Below, piece by piece: positions 25,722 through 39,183 of a stretch of 64,000 nucleotides of DNA. Both the position numbers and the translations under genes were made by a program. The stretch covers positions 21,386 to 85,385 of the forward strand of contig CAYJDM010000002.1 of NCBI GenBank assembly GCA_964368945.1. The letters are read 5' to 3'. How positions within the stretch are numbered: the stretch's first letter is position 1; every line of letters starts with the position of its first letter. The notes under the pieces are model-generated. The model was not told the origin of the DNA, searched no databases, and was given only the letters and a program-made list of their open reading frames with translations. Source of the stretch: an uncultured Candidatus Saccharibacteria bacterium. GTDB taxonomy: Bacteria; Patescibacteriota; Minisyncoccia; Phycocordibacterales; CAIZLB01.

Positions 25722-25746
25722 TTTCAGGCGAAACAGCATTGCCAAA

Positions 25747-25781
25747 AAGAAAACCCCTCGGAGCGAGGGGTTTTCTTTTTG
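25747..25781. terminator. Bidirectional terminator between yidC and the end of the T4SS-like operon
   Basis: The hairpin aaaacccctcggagcgaggggtttt is followed by cttttt. Confidence 0.7.
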
Positions 25782-27158
25782 CTATTGTGTCGGCGGCGTC
25801 TCGGTTCGGTTTGCCAATCTCAAGCCCCAGAGGCTCAGGTCTATCTTGTTCTGGAACATGAGATAGTCTTCGCTGGGATTGAGCATTGGATTGATAACAT
25901 CGAGCGGCTCATCCGCGAGGCTGCCGATAAGGGCGAAAAGCCTCGTCTCCGCAGTCTGTGCATTGACTCTCCAGATCGAATCATCGAATGAGATTCGGCC
26001 CTGGTACCAGACATCTGGATAATCGGTGATTGCAAGTTCGTTTGGCACTGCGCAATAAAGCATTTCTTTTTCCTTGGCAGACCATACGCATTTTTCAGGG
26101 AGCGTTCGGAGGAAAAGATTCGTGACTTGTCCCGTCTTTATATCCAGAGAGTAGAGGTTTGGTGATCCTTGCTCTGATTCGCTATAGAGCAGCTTTTCTC
26201 CGCTTGGAGACATAAGGGTTGTAAGTCCTTTGATATTGCCCAAGAGTTTTTGCATATTCTTGCTAGCTACATCTATCTTATAGGCGTATCCATCGACATT
26301 GGCAGAAGGCTTTGTCGTGATTACAAGCGTCTTTTCCGTAGGCCATTGAACGAGCCATTCCTTGATCGGAGAATCGAATGCTGTAATTTGGCTTGTGCCA
26401 TCCGTATTTGATATGACTCCTGATGGTGTGACTTTTTGTGCGTAAAATATCTTTGATTTGCTAGGAGATAGCGCGATGCTCGTAATATTTCCGGCCAGCT
26501 GCTGTATTGTCAATTCAGGCGAAGTCGATGTAGCGGACATTGATTTCAATATACCGTATCTTGTCCTGATGATATCTGTATCCTGTGCCAAATCTCGCAT
26601 CAAGACGCTCTCTTTCGATGGGAATAATGCCTCGTATATTTTCGGATATGTCGTATTCGAAATCTTGAGCGTATTCAATGTCGTAGAAGCGGTTTCGTAG
26701 ATATGTCCATTTCCGCGATCCATATATTGCATTGTTTCTACTCGCGCTATCAGATTTCTTTGCTCCGGTCGAATGACTCGGGTTGTTGTTGCTGATGTCG
26801 TTCCATTCGCTACGACGATCGTTTCGGTGAGCGGAGTCGTTGTTGCGTATATGTCTTTTGTGAAAAAACCCATTCCGGCCACTGGTGCGCCATAAATCTG
26901 CCGCAGGATTGGCATGCCAAATGGCACGACATCGGTAGGCTGAATAATAGGAGGCAGATCCTCTAGGGTTGTGCTGGCATTTCCAGACACTGATCCCGTT
27001 CCTGATGGATTTCCGAAACCGCTACCCGTTACGACTTCTCGGCCGAACGTATCAAGCTGTGCGCTCTTGCTATTGAGATAGAAATAAAAACCGAGGATTC
27101 CACCGGCCACAATGCAAAGAACGATAACGATGGTTGTGATGATTGTGGAACGCTTCAT
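25782..27158 (-). CDS. Membrane-anchored TolB-like beta-propeller (PD40 repeat) protein. It is the last gene of the T4SS-like operon.
   Basis: An N-terminal transmembrane helix is followed by a PD40-like repeat (SPSGEKLLYSESEQGSPNLYSLDIKTGQVTNL). Confidence 0.45.
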   Translation of the reverse strand: MKRSTIITTIVIVLCIVAGGILGFYFYLNSKSAQLDTFGREVVTGSGFGNPSGTGSVSGNASTTLEDLPPIIQPTDVVPFGMPILRQIYGAPVAGMGFFTKDIYATTTPLTETIVVANGTTSATTTRVIRPEQRNLIARVETMQYMDRGNGHIYETASTTLNTLKISNTTYPKIYEALFPSKESVLMRDLAQDTDIIRTRYGILKSMSATSTSPELTIQQLAGNITSIALSPSKSKIFYAQKVTPSGVISNTDGTSQITAFDSPIKEWLVQWPTEKTLVITTKPSANVDGYAYKIDVASKNMQKLLGNIKGLTTLMSPSGEKLLYSESEQGSPNLYSLDIKTGQVTNLFLRTLPEKCVWSAKEKEMLYCAVPNELAITDYPDVWYQGRISFDDSIWRVNAQTAETRLFALIGSLADEPLDVINPMLNPSEDYLMFQNKIDLSLWGLRLANRTETPPTQ

Positions 27159-27220: not shown

Positions 27221-28261
27221 CTAAGGGTTTCTCGTCTGTGCTCGAGGCGTTCCAAAGGTAAGATCCCATCCTGATGATGGTATTGTTTTGAAAAAATTAT
27301 TACCCCCATACACCTTATTGGGGTCGTATATATCTACGGTATTTACCGATCCTGGCCCAGTCGTATCCTCGTAATATCCAATCATATTTCCATTTACATA
27401 CACTGGCGCGCCTACGGTTGGCTTGTATTTGGATATCAAATCCGGAGAGAGGGCGACGGACCCTGCGGTCAGCAGGTTGTTGCTATTTCCTCTCCTTGCG
27501 ATCGTATTCCTATCAGGGGTGAGATCGTCACTATATCCATATGAAGATATATTAAGTCTGCCATCAGATCCTCGGGATCCATTCGAGATGGCTGAGATTA
27601 ATTCATTTTGCTGCAATGATCCGGTTGGCAGTGCTGTTCCTGACCCGCCAACCACCCCTCCTGTTCCAGGCGATCCGGGCACAATTCGTATTACCGGATT
27701 CACGCTGAACCCTATCCCCGGATCCGCATCGATGACTTTGGGCACGAAGTTCGCGCTGAGGAGGTTGACGTTTATCGTGGACAGGATGAGATATGAGAGC
27801 AGTGCTAAGGCCAATCCTGACAATGCGGCATTGATCTTCTTGCGGCCCCCGCCGTCAATCTTGCCGGACATGGCGTCCACCGTGGACATCTCTATGCCTC
27901 CCACAACGATCATTATGACAGCGAGTCCAGCGGCCACGGCGACGCCGAATATATAGAGATTCTTGACGTACTGCGTCGCCCCTTCCCCTCCCAGATCGAT
28001 ATCACCACCCGTCTTCTCTTTCGCATTGGCTGGCGTTATCCCGTCTATGGGCAATGGCGCGAGGAATACGAACTTGCAGGATGCTCCGGTGCAGCTAGGC
28101 GTATACGCGTCGGCGGTCTTTGGGATGAACGATATTGAGAAAATAAAAACCGATACAAGCCCTAGCCATGTCGCGAGAATGGTTTGCGCGAAAATTTTGG
28201 TTTTTCTTTTGGAAATATGACCAGCGCGTGATGAAATCATTTTGATTATAGTATAAACCAA
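27221..28261 (-). CDS. Membrane protein combining a conserved two-helix (pilin-like) N-terminal module with a C-terminal 3D-domain (MltA/YocH-type) cell-wall-binding/lytic domain
   Basis: The 3D-domain motif is ...LLTAGSVALSPDLISKYKPTVGAPVYVNGNMIGYYEDTTGPGSVNTVDIYD. Its N-terminal 138 aa are nearly identical to the paralog at 28305..29351. Confidence 0.6.
   Translation of the reverse strand: MVYTIIKMISSRAGHISKRKTKIFAQTILATWLGLVSVFIFSISFIPKTADAYTPSCTGASCKFVFLAPLPIDGITPANAKEKTGGDIDLGGEGATQYVKNLYIFGVAVAAGLAVIMIVVGGIEMSTVDAMSGKIDGGGRKKINAALSGLALALLSYLILSTINVNLLSANFVPKVIDADPGIGFSVNPVIRIVPGSPGTGGVVGGSGTALPTGSLQQNELISAISNGSRGSDGRLNISSYGYSDDLTPDRNTIARRGNSNNLLTAGSVALSPDLISKYKPTVGAPVYVNGNMIGYYEDTTGPGSVNTVDIYDPNKVYGGNNFFKTIPSSGWDLTFGTPRAQTRNP
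27867..28105. repeat. Copy 1 of a 239-bp near-identical direct repeat (236 of 239 nt match 28984..29222)
   Basis: Direct comparison of the two stretches shows flanking homology of only about 85%. That pattern indicates a gene-conversion tract. Confidence 0.85.
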
Positions 28262-28304
28262 AATTACCGAATCATTTAGTTTTTTTGTTTTTTGCCGCCC
28301 TAAT

Positions 28305-29351
28305 TTATCTTGGCCTGAATACGTATGTGCTCAATCCCTTGTTGCCGGAATAATAGTTTTGCCATGAATCCAAAGAGAATTTGTCATCAACTTGCTGTTC
28401 TGAGCTGCTATTTGATATTATCTTGCCGCTTGTCGTGAATATTCCCACATGACCCGTATTCGATCCTTGAGTCGGAGAGATTACGATATCGCCAGGCTTA
28501 GCCTGTGTGGCATTGCTCGCGACCAGATAGAATCTATCGCTTCCGCTGAGCTCTGCATACATATCGGAGGTGCTTTTTCCATAATTGGCATTGCTTCCGG
28601 TTATCGGTTTGCCCAAGGCGTCAAATACAATGGCATTAACGGCATATGCGCATGCCAACCTTCCGCCGTTGGTTCCTGATATATTACATGTAGAAACGCC
28701 GAGTTTGCCCAAGGCGGCATCATTCAATCTCTGTGCCGCCGTTCCGTCTGATACATATCCTTGTCCCCCCATCCCTGATGCGATTGGCTGTCCTGGTCGA
28801 ACCGTGATAGTTGGATTCACGCTGAATCCGATATTCGGATCCGCATCGATGACCTTCGGCACGAAGTTCGCGCTGAGGAGATTGACGTTGACTGTCGAGA
28901 GGATCAGATATGACAAAAGGGCGAGCGCCAATCCTGAAAGCGCCGCATTGATCTTCTTCCTCCCGCCCCCATCTATTTTCCCCGACATGGCGTCCACCGT
29001 GGACATCTCTATGCCTCCGACGACTATCATTATGACAGCGAGTCCAGCGGCCACGGCGACGCCGAATATATAGAGATTCTTGACGTACTGCGTCGCCCCT
29101 TCCCCTCCCAGATCGATATCACCACCCGTCTTCTCTTTCGCATTGGCTGGCGTTATCCCGTCTATGGGCAATGGCGCGAGGAATACGAACTTGCAGGATG
29201 CTCCGGTGCAGCTAGGCGTATAGGCCTCTACTCGCTTAGGAGAAAAGACAGACAATGCAAAAAGAGACGATATTGTCAGAATCATCATTCCGAACATTGC
29301 ACCCTGCCCGATCTTTATCAGCTTTTTAAATGATGTTCTCGACATTGGCAT
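28305..29351 (-). CDS. Membrane protein combining the same conserved two-helix N-terminal module with a C-terminal CHAP-domain peptidoglycan hydrolase
   Basis: The CHAP-like Cys...His pattern is CAYAVNAIVFDALGKP...PGDIVISPTQGSNTGHVGIF. The N-terminal module (AYTPSCTGASCKFVFLAPLPIDG...LYIFGVAVAAGLAVIMIVVGGIEM...INAALSGLALALLSYLILST) is shared with 27221..28261. Confidence 0.6.
   Translation of the reverse strand: MPMSRTSFKKLIKIGQGAMFGMMILTISSLFALSVFSPKRVEAYTPSCTGASCKFVFLAPLPIDGITPANAKEKTGGDIDLGGEGATQYVKNLYIFGVAVAAGLAVIMIVVGGIEMSTVDAMSGKIDGGGRKKINAALSGLALALLSYLILSTVNVNLLSANFVPKVIDADPNIGFSVNPTITVRPGQPIASGMGGQGYVSDGTAAQRLNDAALGKLGVSTCNISGTNGGRLACAYAVNAIVFDALGKPITGSNANYGKSTSDMYAELSGSDRFYLVASNATQAKPGDIVISPTQGSNTGHVGIFTTSGKIISNSSSEQQVDDKFSLDSWQNYYSGNKGLSTYVFRPR
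28984..29222. repeat. Copy 2 of the 239-bp near-identical direct repeat
   Basis: See copy 1. Confidence 0.85.
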
Positions 29352-29373: not shown

Positions 29374-30504
29374 TTATAAAGCAGGCGTACTCGGTGTGGT
29401 ATCAAAGTCTATGACAAGCCCTGTAGCCGTCGACTGAAGAATCTTATTTAAATTATCAAGCTGAACCCTGACCGCGCTTCTGCCGATATCAGAATCGGAA
29501 TTCTTTCGAAGGGTAATGGTATTCTGGTTGGCAGGTATATCCACCCCATAAGTATCCACATCCCATGAATATGTAGGTCCAGAGTTTTTATTCAAAACAG
29601 ACTGGAAATATGGATATGCCGAGAGTCCGAGCTCGCTCTTCTTTGCCGTGATTGATCCTTCGAGAGAGCGGTTGAAAAGCAATCCATAAAGCGGATGATT
29701 TTCATAAAACAATGCTATTGGAAAATCATTCTCCACCGTCATATCAGCAACCGCTGCCGCCTTTCCGCTATTTGCTTCATATGTATCGACGCTTACATCC
29801 ACCGGCTGAACGATAATTGGTCCATTATACGTATATGAATTTCTGCCGAATCCTGAATTTTCGGCATCGGCTTCGTAATCGATTTTCCAATTGAATACGA
29901 TGTTTTTTGGATTGATTACGCCGCTCGATGTTCGTGGCATCGCTACGAAAATAAGGCTAGCTTCAGGCGTATAAAGGGCTTTACCTTTATAAAAAGGAGG
30001 GACATATACATTCGACTGCCATAAGAGATCCACATCGCCAGTAGCGAAGGTGAATTTCTGAGAAATGCTAGGCCTGTCTGACGGAGCAACGGTCAGGTCA
30101 ACCACATTGGTCTGTCCAGCCAACCCTGCCTGAAATACGAACTTTTTTGCACCAAGGTCTTGCTGTATGACCTTGCCATTCACCTTCCATGTAATCAGAG
30201 CCGAATTGATGTCGAAGCTATAGGCATTGACGGTGATCGTCGTCTGCTCTCCTGGCTTTGGAATTTCCGGCGTCACCGTCGTATCGAGCTGATCCTTGAA
30301 TTCAGGATATTGAGCAGTCGCTGGAGGAGCATACCCTTCGCTTCCGTCTCCGGAGCCATTGAGATAATTATCTGCCTGCGCATCGCCGCTCTGAGCGCGT
30401 GCGAATTGTCCGCCTACGATGAATGCAAGAGCGAAAACCAATGCCCCGTTCAAAATGAGCAGCGAGATCTTTCTTCGGTGATGTCGATTGTGCTTACTTC
30501 GCAT
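29374..30504 (-). CDS. Membrane-anchored extracellular beta-rich protein of the T4SS-like operon, with no recognised family
   Basis: An N-terminal transmembrane helix (LLILNGALVFALAFIVGG) is followed by a 340-aa Thr/Val/Asn-rich ectodomain. Confidence 0.45.
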   Translation of the reverse strand: MRSKHNRHHRRKISLLILNGALVFALAFIVGGQFARAQSGDAQADNYLNGSGDGSEGYAPPATAQYPEFKDQLDTTVTPEIPKPGEQTTITVNAYSFDINSALITWKVNGKVIQQDLGAKKFVFQAGLAGQTNVVDLTVAPSDRPSISQKFTFATGDVDLLWQSNVYVPPFYKGKALYTPEASLIFVAMPRTSSGVINPKNIVFNWKIDYEADAENSGFGRNSYTYNGPIIVQPVDVSVDTYEANSGKAAAVADMTVENDFPIALFYENHPLYGLLFNRSLEGSITAKKSELGLSAYPYFQSVLNKNSGPTYSWDVDTYGVDIPANQNTITLRKNSDSDIGRSAVRVQLDNLNKILQSTATGLVIDFDTTPSTPAL

Positions 30505-30589: not shown

Positions 30590-31177
30590 TTAATTTAGAT
30601 TTTTTGAAATGAATTCATCTGCCGATTCCGCAATCTGGGCGGATATGACCGCCAATGTGAATCCTGGCAAGGCATTGATTATAGGAAGGAATTCTATGAT
30701 TACGCATATGCCTACAATCACCACCGTCTTTTTATTAATGGACTTGCCTGAAAGGAATTTGAAACCGCCCAAAAGCAGCCATCCCAGCGGAGCGATGATC
30801 AAGCTCGATAAAAAGCCACCCAGGCCTGGCAATATCTGAATGACAAGGCTTGCGAAATCCAGACAGATGGCCGCACATAGCGCTGAAAGGAAGATCGAAA
30901 TGGCCCAAATCTTCTTGGCAGCGCCTTTTTGGAAGTCTGATTCGCCTCCTCCGTTGAGCTTGCTGAAGCCGGCCATATCATTCTGCATTCTATTGTATCG
31001 AGGGCTTCTTGGTGAGGGTTTTCGCGGCGCAGAAACCGTCGTCGTCTGCGTTTCGATCTCTTGTTCTGCCTCGCTTTCATCAGAAACAGCCTCATTCTCA
31101 CCTCTCGGCTTGGAATTGAGGGGCCTCATCGTTATCGGTGCCTGTGCTGGATATTGGGTATTTCTATTGTCGACCAT
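30590..31177 (-). CDS. Small polytopic membrane protein of the T4SS-like operon, encoded directly downstream of virB4
   Basis: A charged N-terminal region is followed by three to four hydrophobic helices (IWAISIFLSALCAAICL..., LIIAPLGWLLLGGF..., VVIVGICVIIEFLPII...). Confidence 0.4.
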   Translation of the reverse strand: MVDNRNTQYPAQAPITMRPLNSKPRGENEAVSDESEAEQEIETQTTTVSAPRKPSPRSPRYNRMQNDMAGFSKLNGGGESDFQKGAAKKIWAISIFLSALCAAICLDFASLVIQILPGLGGFLSSLIIAPLGWLLLGGFKFLSGKSINKKTVVIVGICVIIEFLPIINALPGFTLAVISAQIAESADEFISKNLN

Positions 31178-31226: not shown

Positions 31227-33248
31227 CTACTGATTGAGCAAAGACCCCATATTGCGATTCGCATTCTCTGTATCGCCTGCTTCCATGCGAGGCTGGCCAT
31301 TTGGAGTCTGTTCCTGGGCAGCATGCTGCTTTTCAGCCATTGCGGCATCGTGAATCTCCTGCCCTACGCTCATGACATCCCCTGCTAGGCCTCGAGATTT
31401 AAGATCTTCCTTGGCTTTTCGGATGGCGAGAACCTGAGAAGGGTTCGAAGTGATGATCTGATCCTCCGTATATGAGGCGATAATCTTGATTGCCACGTGT
31501 TTTAGCCCTGCAAAGAAGATTCCTTCACCTACATCAGACTCGAGAAGAAGGTATTTTTCCTCATCTGTAAGGTTGAAGGTCTTCTGGACGACATCAATCG
31601 ATGAAGGAGACTGCTTGAGGAGAACCTGGATAGAAGAGTTGGTGATGATCGGCAAACCGTACGGAGATCGGAGGAAGTCCTCGACATCCTGAGTGATGGT
31701 AGATAATCCGAGATAGTATTTTCGTCCTCGTTTCGCCAAACCATATAGGAATGAAGCCGTATCTTCGGATTTCATCATCCACCATGCCTCGTCTATTACA
31801 AGGAGCCGCTTCTTGAGGGTCTTGCGAACGGTATTCCAAATGAAGTTCATCACGATATACATTGCTACTGGCTTCAATTCGTCTTCCATATTGAGGAGCG
31901 AGAATACGACGAACTTCTTATTGATATCGATATTGGTAGGTCGGTTGATAAAACCCGCCCATGTTCCCTTCGTATATTTCGTCAATCGAGCCACGAGAGA
32001 CTCGCCTCCTTCCATTCCGGCCAATACGAGCTCGAAGTCGGACATCAGAGGTGGCTCTACTTCGGCAAAATTTGACTCTGGCGTGATGTCTTTGAGCGCA
32101 TACGTCTCAGTGATCGCTCGATCGATAATAGAGTCCTCTTCGGGCGTTAAACCGCCAAGCATGATGCGGAACAATCCTACCAGGTTCACGATATTGGATC
32201 GCAAAACATCCGCGCCGGATTCATCCTCTCTCGCGATAGGCAAATCGAATGGATTGATATGGTGTTCTGAAGTCAAAGAGATATTGAAATATCGTCCGCC
32301 AGTAGCCTCAGCCATATATTCATATTCGCGCTCTGGGTCGAGAACGATTACGTCTGTATCGAACATGAGGGTTCGGAGGATTTCGAGCTTCGTAGAGTAT
32401 GACTTTCCTGATCCGGCCTTGGCGAATGTCACGGAGTTATAGTTTTCGAGGCTGAACCGATCAAACAAAATAAGGCTAGAATTATGGCGATTTATGCCAT
32501 AGAGGATTCCTTTGTCCGATGTGAGGTCGAATGAGATAAAAGGGAAAACGCTCGAAAGCGGCGAAGAATTGAGCTTCGAATGCACCGAGAGCTGATCGTC
32601 TGCGATCGGAAGCACGCTTTTGAACCCCTGCTCCTGCTGGAAGAGGGCTGGCTTGAGGTATACGAGGCTCGATTCGAGCATTGATTTGATTTCAGACTCG
32701 ATCTTGTCCAATTCGGAATCAGAATCCCCATAGATCGAGATATAGAGCCCTACATCGAAGATTTTCTCCTGTGCCTGCTGCAGCTGATCTCGCAATCCTT
32801 CGAGGTCCTGGTATGCGGTATCGAGCATCGGATCTCGAACGAGGCCTTTTTCCTCTCGCAAATGGATTTGGCTCTGTACTTCGGCCACTTTCTTCTGGAA
32901 TGTTCGCAAAACCGAAGCCGTATCGATCGGATGGATGAAGATTGAGATATCGAAGATCTTGTCGAGGTTGATTACCGGCGCGAACCAGCTCTCAGAGAGG
33001 AATCGCGGATAAGATATTACGAAAAATGTTCGGACAATCTTGTCCCCAAGGTTGAGCGCTCGCGGGCTTATTTTGAGCGCTGAAGGCGCGATTACATCCT
33101 GAAGCTCGAGTACGCCGGCCTGATAGATTTCCTTCGGCAAAATCGAAGTAATCTGCGGATTATCGGCAAAATCGCCAAGCGGATTGGACATGCCGGCACC
33201 GTTTTTGCCGCCAGCATTCTTTTTTCCTAAAAAATCAAGTAGTCCCAT
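31227..33248 (-). CDS. virB4: Type IV secretion system ATPase VirB4/TrbE/PrgJ family
   Basis: Walker A FAKAGSGKS and Walker B RLLVIDEAWWMM are present. An N-terminal VirB4 membrane-associated domain and the conserved C-terminal block follow. Confidence 0.9.
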   Translation of the reverse strand: MGLLDFLGKKNAGGKNGAGMSNPLGDFADNPQITSILPKEIYQAGVLELQDVIAPSALKISPRALNLGDKIVRTFFVISYPRFLSESWFAPVINLDKIFDISIFIHPIDTASVLRTFQKKVAEVQSQIHLREEKGLVRDPMLDTAYQDLEGLRDQLQQAQEKIFDVGLYISIYGDSDSELDKIESEIKSMLESSLVYLKPALFQQEQGFKSVLPIADDQLSVHSKLNSSPLSSVFPFISFDLTSDKGILYGINRHNSSLILFDRFSLENYNSVTFAKAGSGKSYSTKLEILRTLMFDTDVIVLDPEREYEYMAEATGGRYFNISLTSEHHINPFDLPIAREDESGADVLRSNIVNLVGLFRIMLGGLTPEEDSIIDRAITETYALKDITPESNFAEVEPPLMSDFELVLAGMEGGESLVARLTKYTKGTWAGFINRPTNIDINKKFVVFSLLNMEDELKPVAMYIVMNFIWNTVRKTLKKRLLVIDEAWWMMKSEDTASFLYGLAKRGRKYYLGLSTITQDVEDFLRSPYGLPIITNSSIQVLLKQSPSSIDVVQKTFNLTDEEKYLLLESDVGEGIFFAGLKHVAIKIIASYTEDQIITSNPSQVLAIRKAKEDLKSRGLAGDVMSVGQEIHDAAMAEKQHAAQEQTPNGQPRMEAGDTENANRNMGSLLNQ

Positions 33249-33307
33249 AAAGTATGCGTATAGTATAGCGTATTTATTTTCATCGCGCTGATTTTTTGCA
33301 GAAATAA

Positions 33308-33338
33308 AAAGGACCGGTCGTTGAACCGGTCCTTTTGA
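33308..33338. terminator. Hairpin terminator inside the T4SS-like operon, immediately upstream of the virB4 promoter
   Basis: The hairpin aaaaggaccggtcgttgaaccggtccttttg is followed on the minus strand by ttttt and a TATACT -10 before virB4. Confidence 0.55.
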
Positions 33339-33758
33339 CGATTGAATACGGAGATGAATTGGTGTATCTCAGGCGAACGCCACTCGCTCAGGAGGCATGA
33401 GAGGCGAGATGACGGCTGCAAAGCCGGTCTCCGAACTGCAAATGACGTGTCCATCGAAAGAAAACTGGCGGAGATTTCTATTTTGCAAACCGTCGTCAAC
33501 GCTGTTCGTGAAGCCTTGCTTGGCCAGCCAGTCATTTGCATCGAACGCGTTTACGAAAGGGATTTGTACCGACATTGTGGGCTGTGAAGCATTCGGTCCT
33601 ATCCTGGTGATTGTTACGCTAAATATGTACATAGGTGGTGAGCGGGGTGCGCGGTTTTCTTGGGACTGCCAAGTCAGGTGCTTTTGCATGGACATAAAAC
33701 ACCATCGAAGCGATGGTGTCAATGATGTCCGGCTATTGGATTTCTTGTGCTGGCAAGC

Positions 33759-34406
33759 CTAGAAAAGCTGAATCGGCTTGTCCACATCGCCTGGATTGAA
33801 GATCTTGTAGAACAATTCGATCAATTCCTCGGTTCCGAGCGCTGCGATTCGCACTCCGCATCGCACAAGTCCTTGCTCAACTACCTCTACGCGCTGCTGC
33901 AGCTGGCTGCGCTTTTCTTCGAAGTCGCTATCTGCCTCGAGCTTCTTATCGCTCGCGGATTTTTTGGCAAAAAAGCCCGTCACATTCTTCGCAGAAGGCA
34001 GGCTGAGCTGAGAATACGGCACGACGATAAAGAAGCTTTTCGTCATGATATTCGTAGACTGGGTAAAGCTCTGGATGAATTCGATATATTCGCGAGTCTG
34101 CATCTTCATCAAATCCCCCACCTGGTCCTTGAGCCTTTCCTCAAGGAGGCTTATATATGGCCGTATATCGAGCCTTCGAGACTGCGAATAGATCTGAATG
34201 GAGAAGTTGAGCGAGTTCAGAAAGTTCTGAAACTGGAACAAAACCGATTGCTGCTCCTCAGAGGATTTGAGGGCGAAGTTGATTGATGAGGCCAAAAGAA
34301 CTGCGCGCATAGAGCCATCGCGCATGATGGCGATTCCCTCTCGGATTTCCTTGATTGGAACGAATTCCTGTGTAGCTTTGGCTTGAGCGCTTGTTTTGGT
34401 TGCCAT
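33759..34406 (-). CDS. Hypothetical soluble protein of the T4SS-like operon
   Basis: A 215-aa ORF starts ...VPIKEIREGIAIMRDGSMRAVLLASSINFALKSSEEQ. Its N-terminal motif is reminiscent of the N-termini of Gram-positive conjugation ATPases, but VirB4 downstream is complete on its own. Confidence 0.4.
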   Translation of the reverse strand: MATKTSAQAKATQEFVPIKEIREGIAIMRDGSMRAVLLASSINFALKSSEEQQSVLFQFQNFLNSLNFSIQIYSQSRRLDIRPYISLLEERLKDQVGDLMKMQTREYIEFIQSFTQSTNIMTKSFFIVVPYSQLSLPSAKNVTGFFAKKSASDKKLEADSDFEEKRSQLQQRVEVVEQGLVRCGVRIAALGTEELIELFYKIFNPGDVDKPIQLF

Positions 34407-34571: not shown

Positions 34572-35033
34572 CTATTCGCGTAGGCCGAATGATTCGCGGG
34601 TCGATAGTTTTTTGGCATCCTTTGAGAAAATGGTCTCATTGATATCCAGGCTCCATGCCAGATCCTTGAGCTTGCTGTCTGATACCCGCGGCACATGCGT
34701 CGTTCGGTATTCAGGTGAACCGACTTCGGGCGCTTTTGCCTTTGGAATGGCTTTATCGCGCTTTTTCCAGATATACAATCTGCTACCAGCGAAGAATCTG
34801 ATCGCTGATTCGAGCACATTGATGAGAGGGCGATTATTTACCTTATAAAAAGCCAAAGATAGCGAGACGATAGCCGCAAAGATCATAAGCGGAATGCCGA
34901 TGATGCCAGGCAGAAGCTTGTATGCGATAAAGCAGACGCCAGCGCCTCCTAAGAGGTATGCGAATTGGCGAAATGTGAACGGCCCGAATATTTTATCCTC
35001 TACTTCGATGAATTGAGGAACTTGATATCTCAT
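34572..35033 (-). CDS. PrgI/VirB3-like small membrane protein
   Basis: QFIEVEDKIFGPFTFRQFAYLLGGAGVCFIAYKLLPG... resembles the PrgI-family pattern (EDKIxG..T.RQ plus two transmembrane helices). It is encoded upstream of virB4. Confidence 0.45.
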   Translation of the reverse strand: MRYQVPQFIEVEDKIFGPFTFRQFAYLLGGAGVCFIAYKLLPGIIGIPLMIFAAIVSLSLAFYKVNNRPLINVLESAIRFFAGSRLYIWKKRDKAIPKAKAPEVGSPEYRTTHVPRVSDSKLKDLAWSLDINETIFSKDAKKLSTRESFGLRE

Positions 35034-35561: not shown

Positions 35562-36515
35562 TTATTCTATCGGTTCTCGGTATGGATCCATCGGTCGAGC
35601 CTTCTCGGATTGCGGAACGATTTTATATGATTCCTTCGTGACAGAGCCGGTGATTCCGCTGAGCTTATCGCCCATGCTCGCGCCGATATTCGGAGTCGTC
35701 GATGGCATTGGCGCCTGAGGCTTGAATGGATCGATTATGTTTTCGGTATTCGTGCTTAGGTCAAGGCTGTCTGCGAGTGATGTGCCTATCGCCTGAGAAG
35801 GTGTCGCTGGTGTTGTCGATGTGGCAGGTGCGGCGGGCGCAGGCGCTGTTGGTGAGACCGAGACTTCGTCAGTGGGAGTCAAAATGCCGCGAAGGATATC
35901 TGATGTGCTTGGCTTTGATTTTGGCAAAACGAATTCCGGCTGAGCGATGCTCGGTGTCGGGTTTTCGATTTCGTTCAGAAGCTGCTTTGCGTCGGTATGC
36001 GGGACGTCTTGGATCGGCTCATCTGCATTGCCTGATAATATCTGAGCAGTCGGTGTCTTGAAGGACGGCAAAGGATTGCCTACTGGCATCTGGGAGAACA
36101 TATTCTCGATGAATATTTGTGATGCGGGATCAGTATTCATCGGATATGTCTTCAATTCACTCGAAAGGTCTTTGAAAACTTCATTGTATATTGTATCAAG
36201 GGCATTTGAAACATCTTCATACTCGACCGCGTTCTCTATGATCGTGTTCACGGATGTATTGATAGGGGTTTTGCCTAAGAGCACATCGTTTAACGTCTCA
36301 GTTATGTTTTGTAAGTCAATGTTTGAGAGCGTTATGTCGTTTGATTTTAGGGAAGATAAAATCTTTTCACGCAAGGTTACCGAAGCAATCAAAAGCTTTG
36401 GATTGGGTTTAATTTTGTTGATCGATTTTTCTTCATTCATATATGTGCTTTTAAGAAGATTTTGAGTTAGCTCGCGCCAAATCAGATTCAAGACGTGCCA
36501 TTCGGCGAGTGACAT
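35562..36515 (-). CDS. Hypothetical protein with a Pro/Thr/Ala-rich C-terminal region (T4SS-like operon). The start is probably at 36440.
   Basis: The ORF is long and lies in an operon context. It contains the low-complexity stretch PTAPAPAAPATSTTPATPS. Confidence 0.4.
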   Translation of the reverse strand: MSLAEWHVLNLIWRELTQNLLKSTYMNEEKSINKIKPNPKLLIASVTLREKILSSLKSNDITLSNIDLQNITETLNDVLLGKTPINTSVNTIIENAVEYEDVSNALDTIYNEVFKDLSSELKTYPMNTDPASQIFIENMFSQMPVGNPLPSFKTPTAQILSGNADEPIQDVPHTDAKQLLNEIENPTPSIAQPEFVLPKSKPSTSDILRGILTPTDEVSVSPTAPAPAAPATSTTPATPSQAIGTSLADSLDLSTNTENIIDPFKPQAPMPSTTPNIGASMGDKLSGITGSVTKESYKIVPQSEKARPMDPYREPIE

Positions 36516-39183
36516 CGTTGAGCTTTTTCATATGCTCATCGAGCTCATCCATCTGATCCTGCCAATGTTCTGCAGCAGCGATCTTTGAAGGATCTGTATC
36601 CGCGAGTGCTTTAACCGCATCGAATCTTGTTTCGGCCTTTTTGACCTCAGCTTCCCATCGGTTCTTTGTTGAAATGAAGGCTGGGTTTTCGAGAAGGGCT
36701 TTCTCTTCTTTCGCAAGATCTGAGAGCTGATCCTCAATACCCTTGACGCTGCCTTTGTTTCCTGTGCGTGCTTTTTTAACCGCGGCCAGTCGGGATGCAC
36801 CGGAAATCCCGCCGATTCGCTTTGCATTGAATTCTGCAGAATCAAAAGCCTCCTTTTCGAATCTCTTGTTATCGCCGACATTGTCCTTGTTATATTTGCT
36901 GATTCCACCTGCGCTTTTTGGACGAGCGACGACTTTCTTTACTGAAGGATCTTTTGCGTCTGGAACACGGATATAGTCGATTCCAAGGCGATCGAAATGA
37001 GCCGCCTTCTTATCCTCTTCCTGTCTGTCCTTTCGTGATTTGAACTCCTTTTCATCCTCTCGCCCCAATAATCGTCGCGGCGCCTTGATTTCAGAGAATC
37101 GATCGCGCGTCTTTTCATCACGAGCCTCTCGTGCTTTCTTCGCCTCAGTCAGGCTTGCTCCTCCGACTTTCACATCCTTGAGGTCGCCGATTTTATTATA
37201 CAAATACTGTCCGCCAATATGCTTCAACGGGCTTCTTGCGAGAAGCGTTTGAACGGCTTTGCTTTGCGAGAGCGTATTTCCCAAACCGCCGACCGCTCGC
37301 CTGCCGACATATCCGCCGACGCCGAATCCGTCCATTGCAAAAGCCTTCGCTTTTTTCTTGAAGCCATCTGCGAATTTGAAGCTATCAGCGAATTGATCTG
37401 CGGCGAGCTGTGTACCGAGCATCAATCCGATGATCATGATGAACCAGAATAGAGTTCCTGTTCCAGACACATTTCCCTGGAACAATGATGCAAAGCCAGA
37501 AAGGCCGACGCCAGAGTTGATGCCAGTCTGATCAGGGCCGACTCCTTTTCCAAAGACGATCAATGCAACGACATAGAAGATCGCCATATACGCCGGAGCG
37601 AATAAGAGATTGTCTTTCAATCGGCCTTGCCATTTGCTAGCCGCTCCTTTGAGCGGAGGAATGGCGCCACCGACGAAGCCGACAGGCGAAAGAATCATCA
37701 AGAAGATGAGCACGATTGATCTATAGAGGAATCGAATCGTTGCCATGAACATGGTAAATGCCGTGATGAGAATGAATGTTCCTCCTCCGAGGCAAACGAT
37801 GATGAGCTGGCCTGGGGTATTGATCGTTCCAAATTGGCTTGCGTCAGCAACGGTTTTATCTTTGTTTGTCCAAATAGTCTTCAGTCCCATGGCATTGACG
37901 ATACCGATTGAGATTCCGCCATCCCAGTCATTGCCATTCTCATCGCCTCGAGTAAGGGCGCCGTCGCTGCTATTGGCTATGTCTGCCGCAGCCAAGACGC
38001 GGGTATAGAATTGCAAGGCTATCAGATTGGATACGTCGATGACCGCTTTTGTGAAAAAGAGGCTGAAGTTCAATAAGAGAGCTGCGATCACCACCTTTAT
38101 GATGGTCTGTTTTACTCCATATCCATCCAATCCCAATATCGTCGCTATGCCGGCATACAATAGTATGAAAATGAATCCGACATTAATAAGATCTCGAATC
38201 GCTGACCAGCCGAGATAGATGGGTCCATTTCCTGCATTGCCCAATCCCTCATCGCGGATGAACTTTCCGAAGTTGAGAGTAAAGTCGATGCTGTAATTGA
38301 ATGCGACGCCAGCAGCCCAAAGAACCCAAGAGCTAGGCTTGAGGAATCCATAATATAATCCGAGAGCGATACATCCCTGGAAGCTGAAGTCTGGCAATGC
38401 TGATGCCAAGATGCCGTCCCCGTTCATGACAGAAGAAGAGCTTTCCCTGACGCAGTAAATAGGCTCATTTGCCATTCTCGCCGCAAAAGCTTCCTGTGCT
38501 TTGAGTCGTGCCATGACAGCGTCTTGATTCGCAATTATTGAACCTTCTGGTTTATTGATGGTATCTTTTATTGCCTGTGATGACGAGGCATTGATTATTT
38601 TGAACTTCTCAAAAACATCAAGCTTGGCGGCAAGCAAGGCGTTCCTGGCCTTTTCGTATTCCAAAGCCTGCGCCTTTAATTTTGGGTCCGCATTGATTTC
38701 GGCCGTGCTCTTTCTTTGGAAATTCAAATCATACGCCTTAGTCGCTTCGTCTTTTGTAAGCGCATCCAGTTTCAGGAACGCCGCGTATGACGCATCTTTT
38801 GCGAGCTGATATGCTGTTGCATAATTCTGCTTCGCAGGATCATACTGCTGCTGATAGACCCGGGCGAATACGCTTGATGCGGCATTCTCGCCGCTATATA
38901 CCGTTCCGTCTGCGCTACGGCCTGTTAGCTCATAGATATTCTTCTCATATGCTGCCTGTATGGAATCCTCTCTGCTCGGAGCGCCTTCGCCAAATAAGAA
39001 ATTATAAGCCGATACCGTCGGAGCGGCAATGATATCAAGAGCGCTCTGTGCCTGCGCAATTCGCGCAGTAGACGAAGAAAAAAGCCCAAATACCGAAAAA
39101 ACCAAGCAAGAAAGCGCTATTCCGTATCTGAAAGCACGGTTCTTGCCGCTATGGTTTTCTTTGGGAGAATCGAATCTATTCAT
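36451..39183 (-). CDS. VirB6/TrbL-like polytopic T4SS membrane protein with an N-terminal secreted domain and a ~320-aa highly charged coiled-coil C-terminal tail
   Basis: A signal peptide is followed by a central block of at least six transmembrane helices (WVLWAAGVAFNYSIDF..., FIFILLYAGIATILGL..., IIKVVIAALLLNFSLFF..., etc.). The K/E/R/D-rich tail runs DEKTRDRFSEIKAPRRLLGREDEKEFKSRKDRQEEDKK... Confidence 0.6.
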   Translation of the reverse strand: MNRFDSPKENHSGKNRAFRYGIALSCLVFSVFGLFSSSTARIAQAQSALDIIAAPTVSAYNFLFGEGAPSREDSIQAAYEKNIYELTGRSADGTVYSGENAASSVFARVYQQQYDPAKQNYATAYQLAKDASYAAFLKLDALTKDEATKAYDLNFQRKSTAEINADPKLKAQALEYEKARNALLAAKLDVFEKFKIINASSSQAIKDTINKPEGSIIANQDAVMARLKAQEAFAARMANEPIYCVRESSSSVMNGDGILASALPDFSFQGCIALGLYYGFLKPSSWVLWAAGVAFNYSIDFTLNFGKFIRDEGLGNAGNGPIYLGWSAIRDLINVGFIFILLYAGIATILGLDGYGVKQTIIKVVIAALLLNFSLFFTKAVIDVSNLIALQFYTRVLAAADIANSSDGALTRGDENGNDWDGGISIGIVNAMGLKTIWTNKDKTVADASQFGTINTPGQLIIVCLGGGTFILITAFTMFMATIRFLYRSIVLIFLMILSPVGFVGGAIPPLKGAASKWQGRLKDNLLFAPAYMAIFYVVALIVFGKGVGPDQTGINSGVGLSGFASLFQGNVSGTGTLFWFIMIIGLMLGTQLAADQFADSFKFADGFKKKAKAFAMDGFGVGGYVGRRAVGGLGNTLSQSKAVQTLLARSPLKHIGGQYLYNKIGDLKDVKVGGASLTEAKKAREARDEKTRDRFSEIKAPRRLLGREDEKEFKSRKDRQEEDKKAAHFDRLGIDYIRVPDAKDPSVKKVVARPKSAGGISKYNKDNVGDNKRFEKEAFDSAEFNAKRIGGISGASRLAAVKKARTGNKGSVKGIEDQLSDLAKEEKALLENPAFISTKNRWEAEVKKAETRFDAVKALADTDPSKIAAAEHWQDQMDELDEHMKKLNDVTRRMARLESDLARANSKSS

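Follow-up and report, generated by a model that had tools for sequence, protein, structure and literature searches.

In a stretch of 64,000 nucleotides (nt) from an uncultured Candidatus Saccharibacteria bacterium (assembly GCA_964368945.1, contig CAYJDM010000002.1, positions 21,386 to 85,385; the whole stretch is called the window below), two adjacent genes, which we named A and B, lie within the gene cluster of a type IV secretion system (T4SS). Their products share an N-terminal module resembling the pilin VirB2 and carry different C-terminal domains, called heads here. We think that A and B are probably VirB1-like hydrolases of the secretion system which are anchored by the VirB2-like module, that their heads are exchangeable, and that the module evolves in concert. 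The positions of the features in the window are listed in Table 1.

The shared module and the two heads

Protein A consists of a signal peptide, a pilin-like module, a linker and an MltA-like head of the double-psi beta-barrel (DPBB) type. Protein B consists of a signal peptide, a VirB2-like pilin module, a Gly/Pro linker and a cysteine hydrolase head of the NlpC/P60-CHAP-Amidase_5 type. The two open reading frames (ORFs) are separated by 43 nt. When A was compared with B by BLASTP, 151 of 176 residues were identical, and the match was confined to the N-terminal part. The C-termini are unrelated; a preliminary description of this DNA had already noted that they differ. The identity over the whole proteins was about 44%. 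The homologous block comprises codons 52-190 of A and codons 43-181 of B, which correspond to 139 amino acids at an offset of +1117 nt, and it contains two amino-acid differences (I163V and G182N). The preliminary description had given a common module of 138 amino acids with a single I/V change; the module itself stands, and its size and the number of changes are corrected by these values. An orthologue of A (P0002) is 63% identical to it, and B is identical from Met3 on to an NCBI protein from a 168-kb contig (P0004).

Translation of gene A may begin either at TTG 28261 or at ATG 28240. A TATAAT-like hexamer is located a few bases 5' of the ATG (region 28240-28270), and no Shine-Dalgarno sequence is evident there. 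Gene A might be transcribed from a promoter of its own, or its mRNA might be leaderless.

From the N-terminus on, the module comprises a signal peptide that can be cleaved off, the mature N-terminus, in which C-x4-C and FLAPLP occur, an amphipathic, long helix ending in the first transmembrane helix (TM1, LYIFGVAVAAGLAVIMIVVGGI), a basic loop (GKIDGGGRKK), the second transmembrane helix (TM2, INAALSGLALALLSYLILST) and a Gly/Pro-rich linker. The cleavage site predicted from the sequence lies between A-x-A and Y. The signal peptide, the two hydrophobic helices and the short basic loop reproduce the topology of the Pfam family PF18895 (T4SS_pilin). In the AlphaFold2 model the module forms a helical hairpin (H41-81/H87-111), for which the predicted local distance difference test (pLDDT) value was 70-84 in the helices and 61 overall.

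With the module alone as the query, phmmer matched the PF18895-positive proteins P0018, P0011 and P0012 with E values of 6e-22, 5e-20 and 1e-14, respectively. PF18895 was also matched by 13 of 16 related modules (best value 5.9e-9). A profile of the module retrieved 32,858 cluster representatives at E<=1e-3, and among the 126 nearest representatives (<=500 aa), 116 were PF18895-positive. The family PF04956 (TrbC/VirB2) matched neither A nor B; it was weakly matched by 3 of the 16 relatives (best 0.029), and some more distant members of the family reach 3e-5. Judged by sequence homology, the shared module is a member of PF18895, that is, a VirB2-like module. The preliminary reading of the module as a T4SS pilin of the TrbC/VirB2 type is upheld by the homology to PF18895, by the right topology and by the locus with VirB4 and PrgI. 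Four long proteins (P0031, P0047, P0103 and P0150; 966-1775 aa) show 10-16 pilin-module matches per chain and look like tandemly fused modules.

The head of B was scored just below the cut-offs of three Pfam families, namely NLPC_P60 (22.0 bits; cut-off 23), CHAP (20.1 bits; cut-off 26) and Amidase_5 (19.0 bits; cut-off 21). A profile made from 11 B-type sequences matched the endolysin Lys2972 (8tw1) in the PDB with an E value of 1.1e-6, and CwlO and MepS were the next. Cys41 and His108 (numbering of alignment A5) are invariant in the 11 sequences and align with the Cys and the His region of Lys2972. From these matches, the head of B is assigned at the clan level as a cysteine hydrolase of the NlpC/P60-CHAP-Amidase_5 type, a clan which we take to be Pfam CL0125. 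The CHAP domain proposed in the preliminary description was right at this level.

The head of A has the double-psi beta-barrel fold. It matched no family of Pfam (E<=1) or NCBIfam, and the A-type heads of P0002, P0020-22, P0046 and P0051 gave no Pfam hit at E<=0.1. Searches of the PDB with the A head, by phmmer and with a profile, returned nothing relevant, and no Pfam, PDB-sequence or HH-level match to 3D (PF06725) or DPBB_1 was obtained. When the A-type profile was aligned by HHalign with 126 family members, it was linked to A-type heads only and not to the one pilin that is positive for Pfam 3D. As candidate aspartates, those of 'EDTTG' and 'VDIY' are invariant, and that of 'SPD' is Asn in P0002; their correspondence to the Asp residues of the 3D family was drawn by eye. 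The orthologue P0002 bears the JGI label '3D domain-containing', which Pfam did not confirm. We therefore describe the head of A as an MltA-like DPBB, with its membership in Pfam 3D unconfirmed. Of the earlier call '3D domain (MltA/YocH-like)', the MltA-like barrel is retained, and the 3D match was not found. In P0013, the module of which is 57% identical, another type of head is present, with weak RlpA-like similarity to DPBB_1 (E=0.019).

Heads of both types are also found in other proteins. The A-type head occurs behind a simple single-TM anchor (P0020-P0022), and the B-type head occurs at the end of P0017, a protein with a phage-tail-lysozyme domain. Thus, both heads are mobile domains.

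Gene conversion between the two modules

The tract that was reported in the preliminary description was reproduced exactly: 236 of 239 nt are identical between the two copies (Table 1). The identity includes a perfect run of 197 nt (27909-28105 in the coordinates of A), and the three mismatches (27902, 27905 and 27908) are synonymous changes at the third positions of three consecutive codons. On the 3' side of the tract (27696-27866), 35 of 171 nt differ, nearly all of them synonymously, which gives an identity of about 80%. On the 5' side there is no homologous flank, since the identity begins right after the predicted signal-peptidase site and the signal peptides are unalignable. The earlier figure of about 85% for the flanking homologous sequence is therefore replaced by these values.

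The two parts of the block were compared by the method of Nei and Gojobori. In the first segment (codons 53-131), the proportion of synonymous differences (pS) was 0.067 and the nonsynonymous divergence (dN) was 0. In the second segment (codons 132-190), pS was 0.64 and dN was 0.06. The pS of the second segment is saturated to the degree found for orthologue pairs of different genomes (0.65-0.99). With 34 of the 139 codons differing, an uninterrupted stretch of 65 identical ones did not appear in any of 1e6 permutations (0/1e6), and the analytic bound was 3e-10. The module has a dN of 0.04-0.2 at a saturated synonymous divergence (dS) and is more conserved than the heads. The saturated second segment, the nearly identical protein and the clean first segment together indicate that the modules are old at synonymous sites, that purifying selection has kept them, and that the 5' two-thirds was recently overwritten. 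From these substitution patterns, we judge the module to be under very strong purifying selection, and gene conversion between the modules of A and B to be strongly supported.

The same feature is seen in a distant lineage (L011, assembly GCA_964386665.1), the modules of which are about 40% identical to those of A and B. There, the modules of a tandem pair contain a perfect 242-nt tract from helix 1 to TM2, with diverged sequence on either side. The contrast in pS, the bound on the run length and the recurrence in L011 all agree with the gene conversion that had been proposed at the beginning.

We suppose that non-reciprocal recombination between the direct repeats, which lie 1117 nt from each other, recently made the 5' two-thirds of the module uniform, and an exchange of the RecA type between the two repeats would be the simplest route. 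The same repeats could also be deleted in frame, which would produce the single-gene state found in relatives.

Long ORFs on the opposite strand (27423-27956 and 28585-29073, both +) each span the repeated tract and are most likely shadow ORFs of the duplicated coding sequence. We also considered whether the tract is kept identical by selection acting on an antisense ORF or on an RNA element. This is unlikely because the perfect tract of L011 spans a different part of the module; the opposite-strand ORFs, too, look like shadows.

The outer edges of both copies of the tract were recovered in an independent assembly (k=31) of the run ERR4405439. The Logan contigs obtained were 100% identical to the window: L010 covers 33504-29193 and ends 30 nt inside the copy of B, and L005 covers 27896-26068 and ends 30 nt inside the copy of A. 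Ends at 30 nt within the tract are what a de Bruijn graph of k=31, branching at a true repeat, would be expected to give. The junction between the stop of B and the start of A (28262-28304) is a unique sequence.

The secretion locus and its relatives

As shown in Table 1, A and B belong to a co-oriented cluster in the order 910-aa, PrgI, TraC-like, VirB4 P-loop, 195-aa, 376-aa, B, A and 458-aa ORFs. VirB4 and PrgI lie upstream of the module genes on the same strand, at 1.9 kb and 5.2 kb, respectively. Across a terminator, the end of the cluster faces yidC-rnpA-rpmH, and dnaA and dnaN follow just beyond on the opposite strand. Judging from these genes, the locus is a chromosomal T4SS locus of the monoderm type (VirB4 CD1110/MPF-FATA-like). 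A recent survey (PMC12102498) describes patescibacterial MPF-FATA-like T4SS loci beside the replication origin (dnaA/rnpA/ksgA), with VirB2-like pilins and usually without VirB1. In Southlakia epibionticum (S. epibionticum), neither the T4SS nor the pilins belonging to it are dispensable (PMC10633639).

Table 1. Features of the window discussed in the text (., no strand assigned).
Feature	Position	Strand	Remarks
Gene A	27221-28261	−	346 aa (start TTG 28261) or 339 aa (start ATG 28240); ORF
Gene B	28305-29351	−	348 aa; ORF
Pilin-like module of A	27692-28108	−	codons 52-190
Pilin-like module of B	28809-29225	−	codons 43-181
Head of A	27224-27649	−	double-psi beta-barrel, MltA/expansin-like; putative glycan-strand-cleaving or glycan-binding domain
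Head of B	28308-28772	−	papain-like cysteine peptidoglycan hydrolase (predicted); invariant Cys (GGRLACA) and His (GHVGI)
Conversion tract, copy in A	27867-28105	.	236/239 nt identical to 28984-29222
Conversion tract, copy in B	28984-29222	.	236/239 nt identical to 27867-28105
Bidirectional terminator-like hairpin	25743-25781	.	18-bp stem; separates yidC (+) from the last gene of the convergent T4SS operon (−)
458-aa N-terminally anchored beta-propeller-like protein	25782-27158	−	conserved directly downstream; last operon gene
376-aa secreted or anchored protein	29374-30504	−	conserved directly upstream of the pilin-hydrolase slot
195-aa membrane protein	30590-31177	−	conserved after virB4
VirB4-like ATPase, P-loop part	31227-33248	−	NCBIfam conju_CD1110 363 bits (cut-off 325); Pfam P-loop_TraG 1.4e-25
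TraC-like N-terminal part of VirB4, separate ORF	33759-34406	−	Pfam TraC_F_IV weak; counterpart in L001-L003 annotated PF26593 TraC-like
PrgI family (VirB3-like)	34572-35033	−	Pfam PrgI 5.7e-12
910-aa polytopic membrane protein	36451-39183	−	VirB6-like in position only; synteny-conserved; no Pfam hit

VirB4 is encoded by two ORFs, a TraC-like one of about 215 aa and a P-loop one of about 600-680 aa, in every related locus (L001-L003, L011-L013), so the division is a conserved feature and not a frameshift. In the window, the spacer between the two ORFs (33249-33758) is about 510 nt long, compared with 18-104 nt in relatives, and holds an ORF of 106/117 aa (33369-33722, −) without a family match. 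This spacer looks like a small insertion within the T4SS operon. A strong terminator-like hairpin (33336-33307, −) is located just upstream of virB4.

By phmmer and hmmsearch, neither a third copy of the module nor a standalone pilin was found in the window, and no other recognisable hydrolase was present in the cluster or the window. A 124-aa ORF beside prgI lacks hydrophobic helices and was therefore dismissed as a candidate small pilin. We also asked whether the 458-aa gene encodes an immunity protein specific to the head; this was rejected, since the gene is kept whatever the head is (L001-L003, L011).

Four related loci (L001, L002, L003 and L006; 82-88% nt identity in the VirB4 region) have the same gene order with a single pilin-head gene in the slot. 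The head in the slot is of the A type in L001 and SLT in L002, L003 and L006. The presence of different heads at one fixed locus indicates that the head was exchanged there, with the junction in the linker. The slot between the T4SS genes was fixed in 7 of the 7 related loci examined, and the syntenic clusters of L001-L003 contained no standalone pilin. The tandem pair of L011 has a B-type head followed by an SLT head in the same order of genes, and in another lineage (L012 and L013) a pilin-SLT gene is paired with a 173-aa pilin.

A survey of 80 metagenomic loci revealed two designs. In the first, arrays of 4-5 small, divergent pilins are present, with 30-70% identity between neighbours. In the second, pilins with heads of about 150-200 aa occur as singles, pairs or triplets, and directly adjacent pairs tend to have high module similarity. 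The values for tandem pairs are shown in Table 2. The similarity was limited to the module in every tandem pair checked. In L053 (1005-2874 of Ga0180432_10049279), the heads of the pair are unrelated Cys-rich domains without a recognisable hydrolase.

Table 2. Similarity of neighbouring modules in tandem genes.
Locus	Module identity between neighbours	Longest identical nt run
Window	98%	197
L053	100% over 76 aa, 39 synonymous differences	28
L037 (second and third genes)	93%	62
L011	87% (core 100%)	242
L071	77%	78
L043	70%	78

Among the nearest relatives, the recognisable heads included SLT (14), SLT_3, Peptidase_M15_3, VanY, YkuD_2, 3D, NlpC/P60, CHAP, GH75 and GDSL. The preliminary description had regarded the fusion of such a module to alternative heads as unusual. 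It is in fact common in the family and among relatives: homologous modular fusions, for which that description had suggested looking, were found in L001-L003, L006, L011 and the wider family. Some fused heads (L037, L047 and L061) match PF18896 SLT_3 ('lysozyme like domain'), the accession next after PF18895. The consecutive numbers suggest that both families were defined from the same pilin-lysozyme proteins and that the curators had met such fusions.

Readings of the locus and known systems

Both A and B are encoded in the T4SS operon, and by their predicted topology each has a membrane anchor and an extracytoplasmic hydrolase domain, which is the arrangement of a VirB1-like protein. Their action may be considered as follows. 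A and B would be exported by the Sec pathway and probably cleaved after A-x-A. The VirB2-like two-helix hairpin would then enter the membrane so that both termini lie outside the cell and the basic loop faces the cytoplasm, and the Gly/Pro linker would place the peptidoglycan-acting head on the outer face. To judge from the types of the heads, that of B (cysteine amidase/endopeptidase) would cut the peptide stem, and that of A (MltA-like double-psi beta-barrel) would act on the glycan strand. The pilin module would recruit A and B to the machine of VirB3, VirB4 and VirB6, and it might also serve to assemble them together with that machine. Between lineages, the heads would be swapped by recombination at the boundary of module and linker. 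Since A and B would jointly give both activities of the Gram-positive T4SS hydrolases, we think that they may be the functional equivalents of VirB1 here. As part of this reading, we infer that the wall to be cut is either the bacterium's own or that of its host.

Several observations weigh against this assignment. The threshold of PF18895 (26.6 bits) was not reached by either protein: B scored 10.3 bits (E=0.81), and A gave no hit at E<=1. The structure comparison of the hairpin does not tell a pilin from other helical hairpins, so the pilin assignment rests on the sequence family and the genomic context; where the preliminary description had thought of a VirB2/TrbC pilin fold, the AlphaFold2 model gave the hairpin, which is generic, and a pilin-specific fold could not be distinguished. 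Furthermore, many heads of the family have no recognisable hydrolase domain (among the nearest relatives, most have no Pfam match), and some are Cys-rich. The module may thus be a general display scaffold and not an anchor specific to VirB1. Finally, the pilins of S. epibionticum are standalone, and its lysozyme and peptidase proteins are separate, which means that the fusion is not required for function.

A and B could also be head-bearing pilins. A broader scheme that joins the two ideas is one that we hold only tentatively: in much of Patescibacteria, the T4SS 'pilin' would be a near-invariant VirB2-like module with interchangeable heads, a head-decorated conduit or filament would open the host wall, heads would be swapped from strain to strain, and conversion would keep the tandem copies co-assembling. 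The heads may include SLT, MltA-like DPBB, NlpC/P60-CHAP, M15/VanY peptidase, YkuD, lipase-like and Cys-rich domains. By analogy with polymorphic toxin systems, the swaps would occur by recombination inside the conserved module. If this scheme is true, it would explain the apparent absence of canonical VirB1 from most patescibacterial T4SS loci.

It is rather unlikely that A and B are genuine pilus subunits. According to this explanation, the PF18895 module polymerises, every subunit or some subunits show an enzymatic head, and the filament drills the host wall; the tandem genes would then form a mixed filament, hence the identical interfaces. The lack of a standalone pilin in the window and in the syntenic clusters of L001-L003 favours it, and so does the recurrence of module identity in differently headed tandem paralogues (the window, the core of L011, L053 and L037; Table 2). 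Structures of the F- and T-pilus are the basis for placing a head on the surface of a filament, where the C-terminal head would be set by an N-out/C-out topology. S. epibionticum cannot do without its pilins, and the existence of a pilus has been postulated (PMC12857230). However, it is doubtful on steric grounds that each subunit in a helical filament of the VirB2 type could carry a head of 150 aa. Filaments have not been observed, and most of the high identity is accounted for by the hairpin being extremely conserved between species.

It is unlikely that the module is a mere conserved two-TM anchor for housekeeping autolysins of growth and division that lie within the T4SS operon by chance. 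In favour of this, the fold of the hairpin is a generic one, and the A-type head is also found behind a single-TM anchor. Nevertheless, the module is more conserved than the heads (dN 0.04-0.2 at saturated dS), its family is named for and enriched in T4SS loci, and the slot between T4SS genes is fixed in all seven related loci. We consider it very improbable that the 239-nt identity is an assembly artefact (a two-strain chimera or a collapsed or duplicated repeat) instead of gene conversion in one genome: the source contig is metagenome-assembled and the perfect 197-nt run exceeds the usual k-mer sizes, but each of the two tract copies has flanks of its own, the unique B-A junction would be absent from either single-gene variant, the independent contigs enter the tract by 30 nt from both outer sides, and L011 has the same architecture with its perfect tract in another assembly.

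We therefore return to A and B as module-anchored, VirB1-like hydrolases and compare them with what has been described. Published work already covers the T4SS, the place where it lies and the arrays of VirB2-like pilins; the fusion is common and largely undescribed in these bacteria. In the papers that we consulted, we found no description of pilin-hydrolase fusions as the equivalent of VirB1, of head exchange at a syntenic slot or of module-level concerted evolution, and the accessible part of PMC12102498 makes no mention of pilin-hydrolase fusions. The patescibacterial VirB2-like pilins of PF18895 (PMC12102498, PMC10633639) are similar to A and B in that they belong to the same family by homology and are encoded by tandem genes. 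Their loci are also similar, being chromosomal, near dnaA/dnaN/rnpA/rpmH/ksgA, with PrgI and a split VirB4. According to Quinonero-Coronel et al. 2025 (PMC12102498), the arrays consist of small, standalone and divergent pilins (mean identity 25%, maximum 54%), VirB1 is missing in most VirB2-containing genomes, and monoderm VirB1 homologues show a two-domain pattern of SLT plus a CHAP-type domain. The pilins of S. epibionticum have 127-139 aa. In contrast to such arrays, the sole pilin-module genes here bear enzymatic heads of about 160 aa (predicted), and the modules, which contain a conversion tract, share 98% identity. The published maximum of 54% is compatible with whole-protein figures such as the 44% of A and B, and it hides the near-identity of the modules. 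That is, whole-protein identity masks strong concerted evolution at the module level in 'pilin arrays'.

These points matter because the only patescibacterium amenable to genetics cannot lead its epibiotic life without the T4SS and its pilins, and a VirB1-type wall hydrolase is usually missing in surveys. The locus suggests that, in some lineages, predicted wall-cutting enzymes are physically part of VirB2-like proteins. At the fixed slot, the head varies among close relatives (SLT, MltA-like, NlpC/P60-CHAP-like), and the module is nearly frozen and homogenised between tandem copies. We thus have a testable hypothesis of how these ultrasmall bacteria pass a secretion conduit through their own wall or that of the host.

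Concerted evolution by gene conversion is known for tandem paralogues of surface proteins, and head swapping is known for polymorphic toxins (CdiA-CT, Rhs). A and B share with these systems a conserved N-terminal module for trafficking or assembly, a recombination-prone boundary, C-terminal domains that close relatives interchange at a single locus, and identical DNA tracts connecting the tandem copies. Unlike in these systems, no silent cassette store, immunity gene, invertase or diversity-generating element was seen at the locus, the gene downstream does not change with the head, and there are two full-length copies only.

As for the heads, MltA/3D (PF06725) and RlpA-like lytic transglycosylases of the DPBB type differ from the head of A, which has no sequence match to them and the first Asp of which is Asn in P0002; DPBB domains can also be non-catalytic binders, as in expansins. 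Among the T4SS hydrolases of Gram-positive bacteria, TraG of pIP501 has SLT and CHAP domains, PrgK of pCF10 has LytM, SLT and CHAP domains, and CwlT of ICEBs1 has a muramidase and an NlpC/P60 domain. Like A and B, these VirB1-like proteins are encoded in a T4SS operon, have an N-terminal membrane anchor and pair a glycan-cleaving activity with a cysteine peptidase or amidase. Their glycan-directed domain is SLT or muramidase, whereas that of A would be an MltA-like DPBB, and their anchor is a single TM or a lipobox, whereas that of A and B is a hairpin of the VirB2 family. Moreover, TraG, PrgK and CwlT unite both activities in one polypeptide, whereas A and B would divide them between two paralogous proteins.

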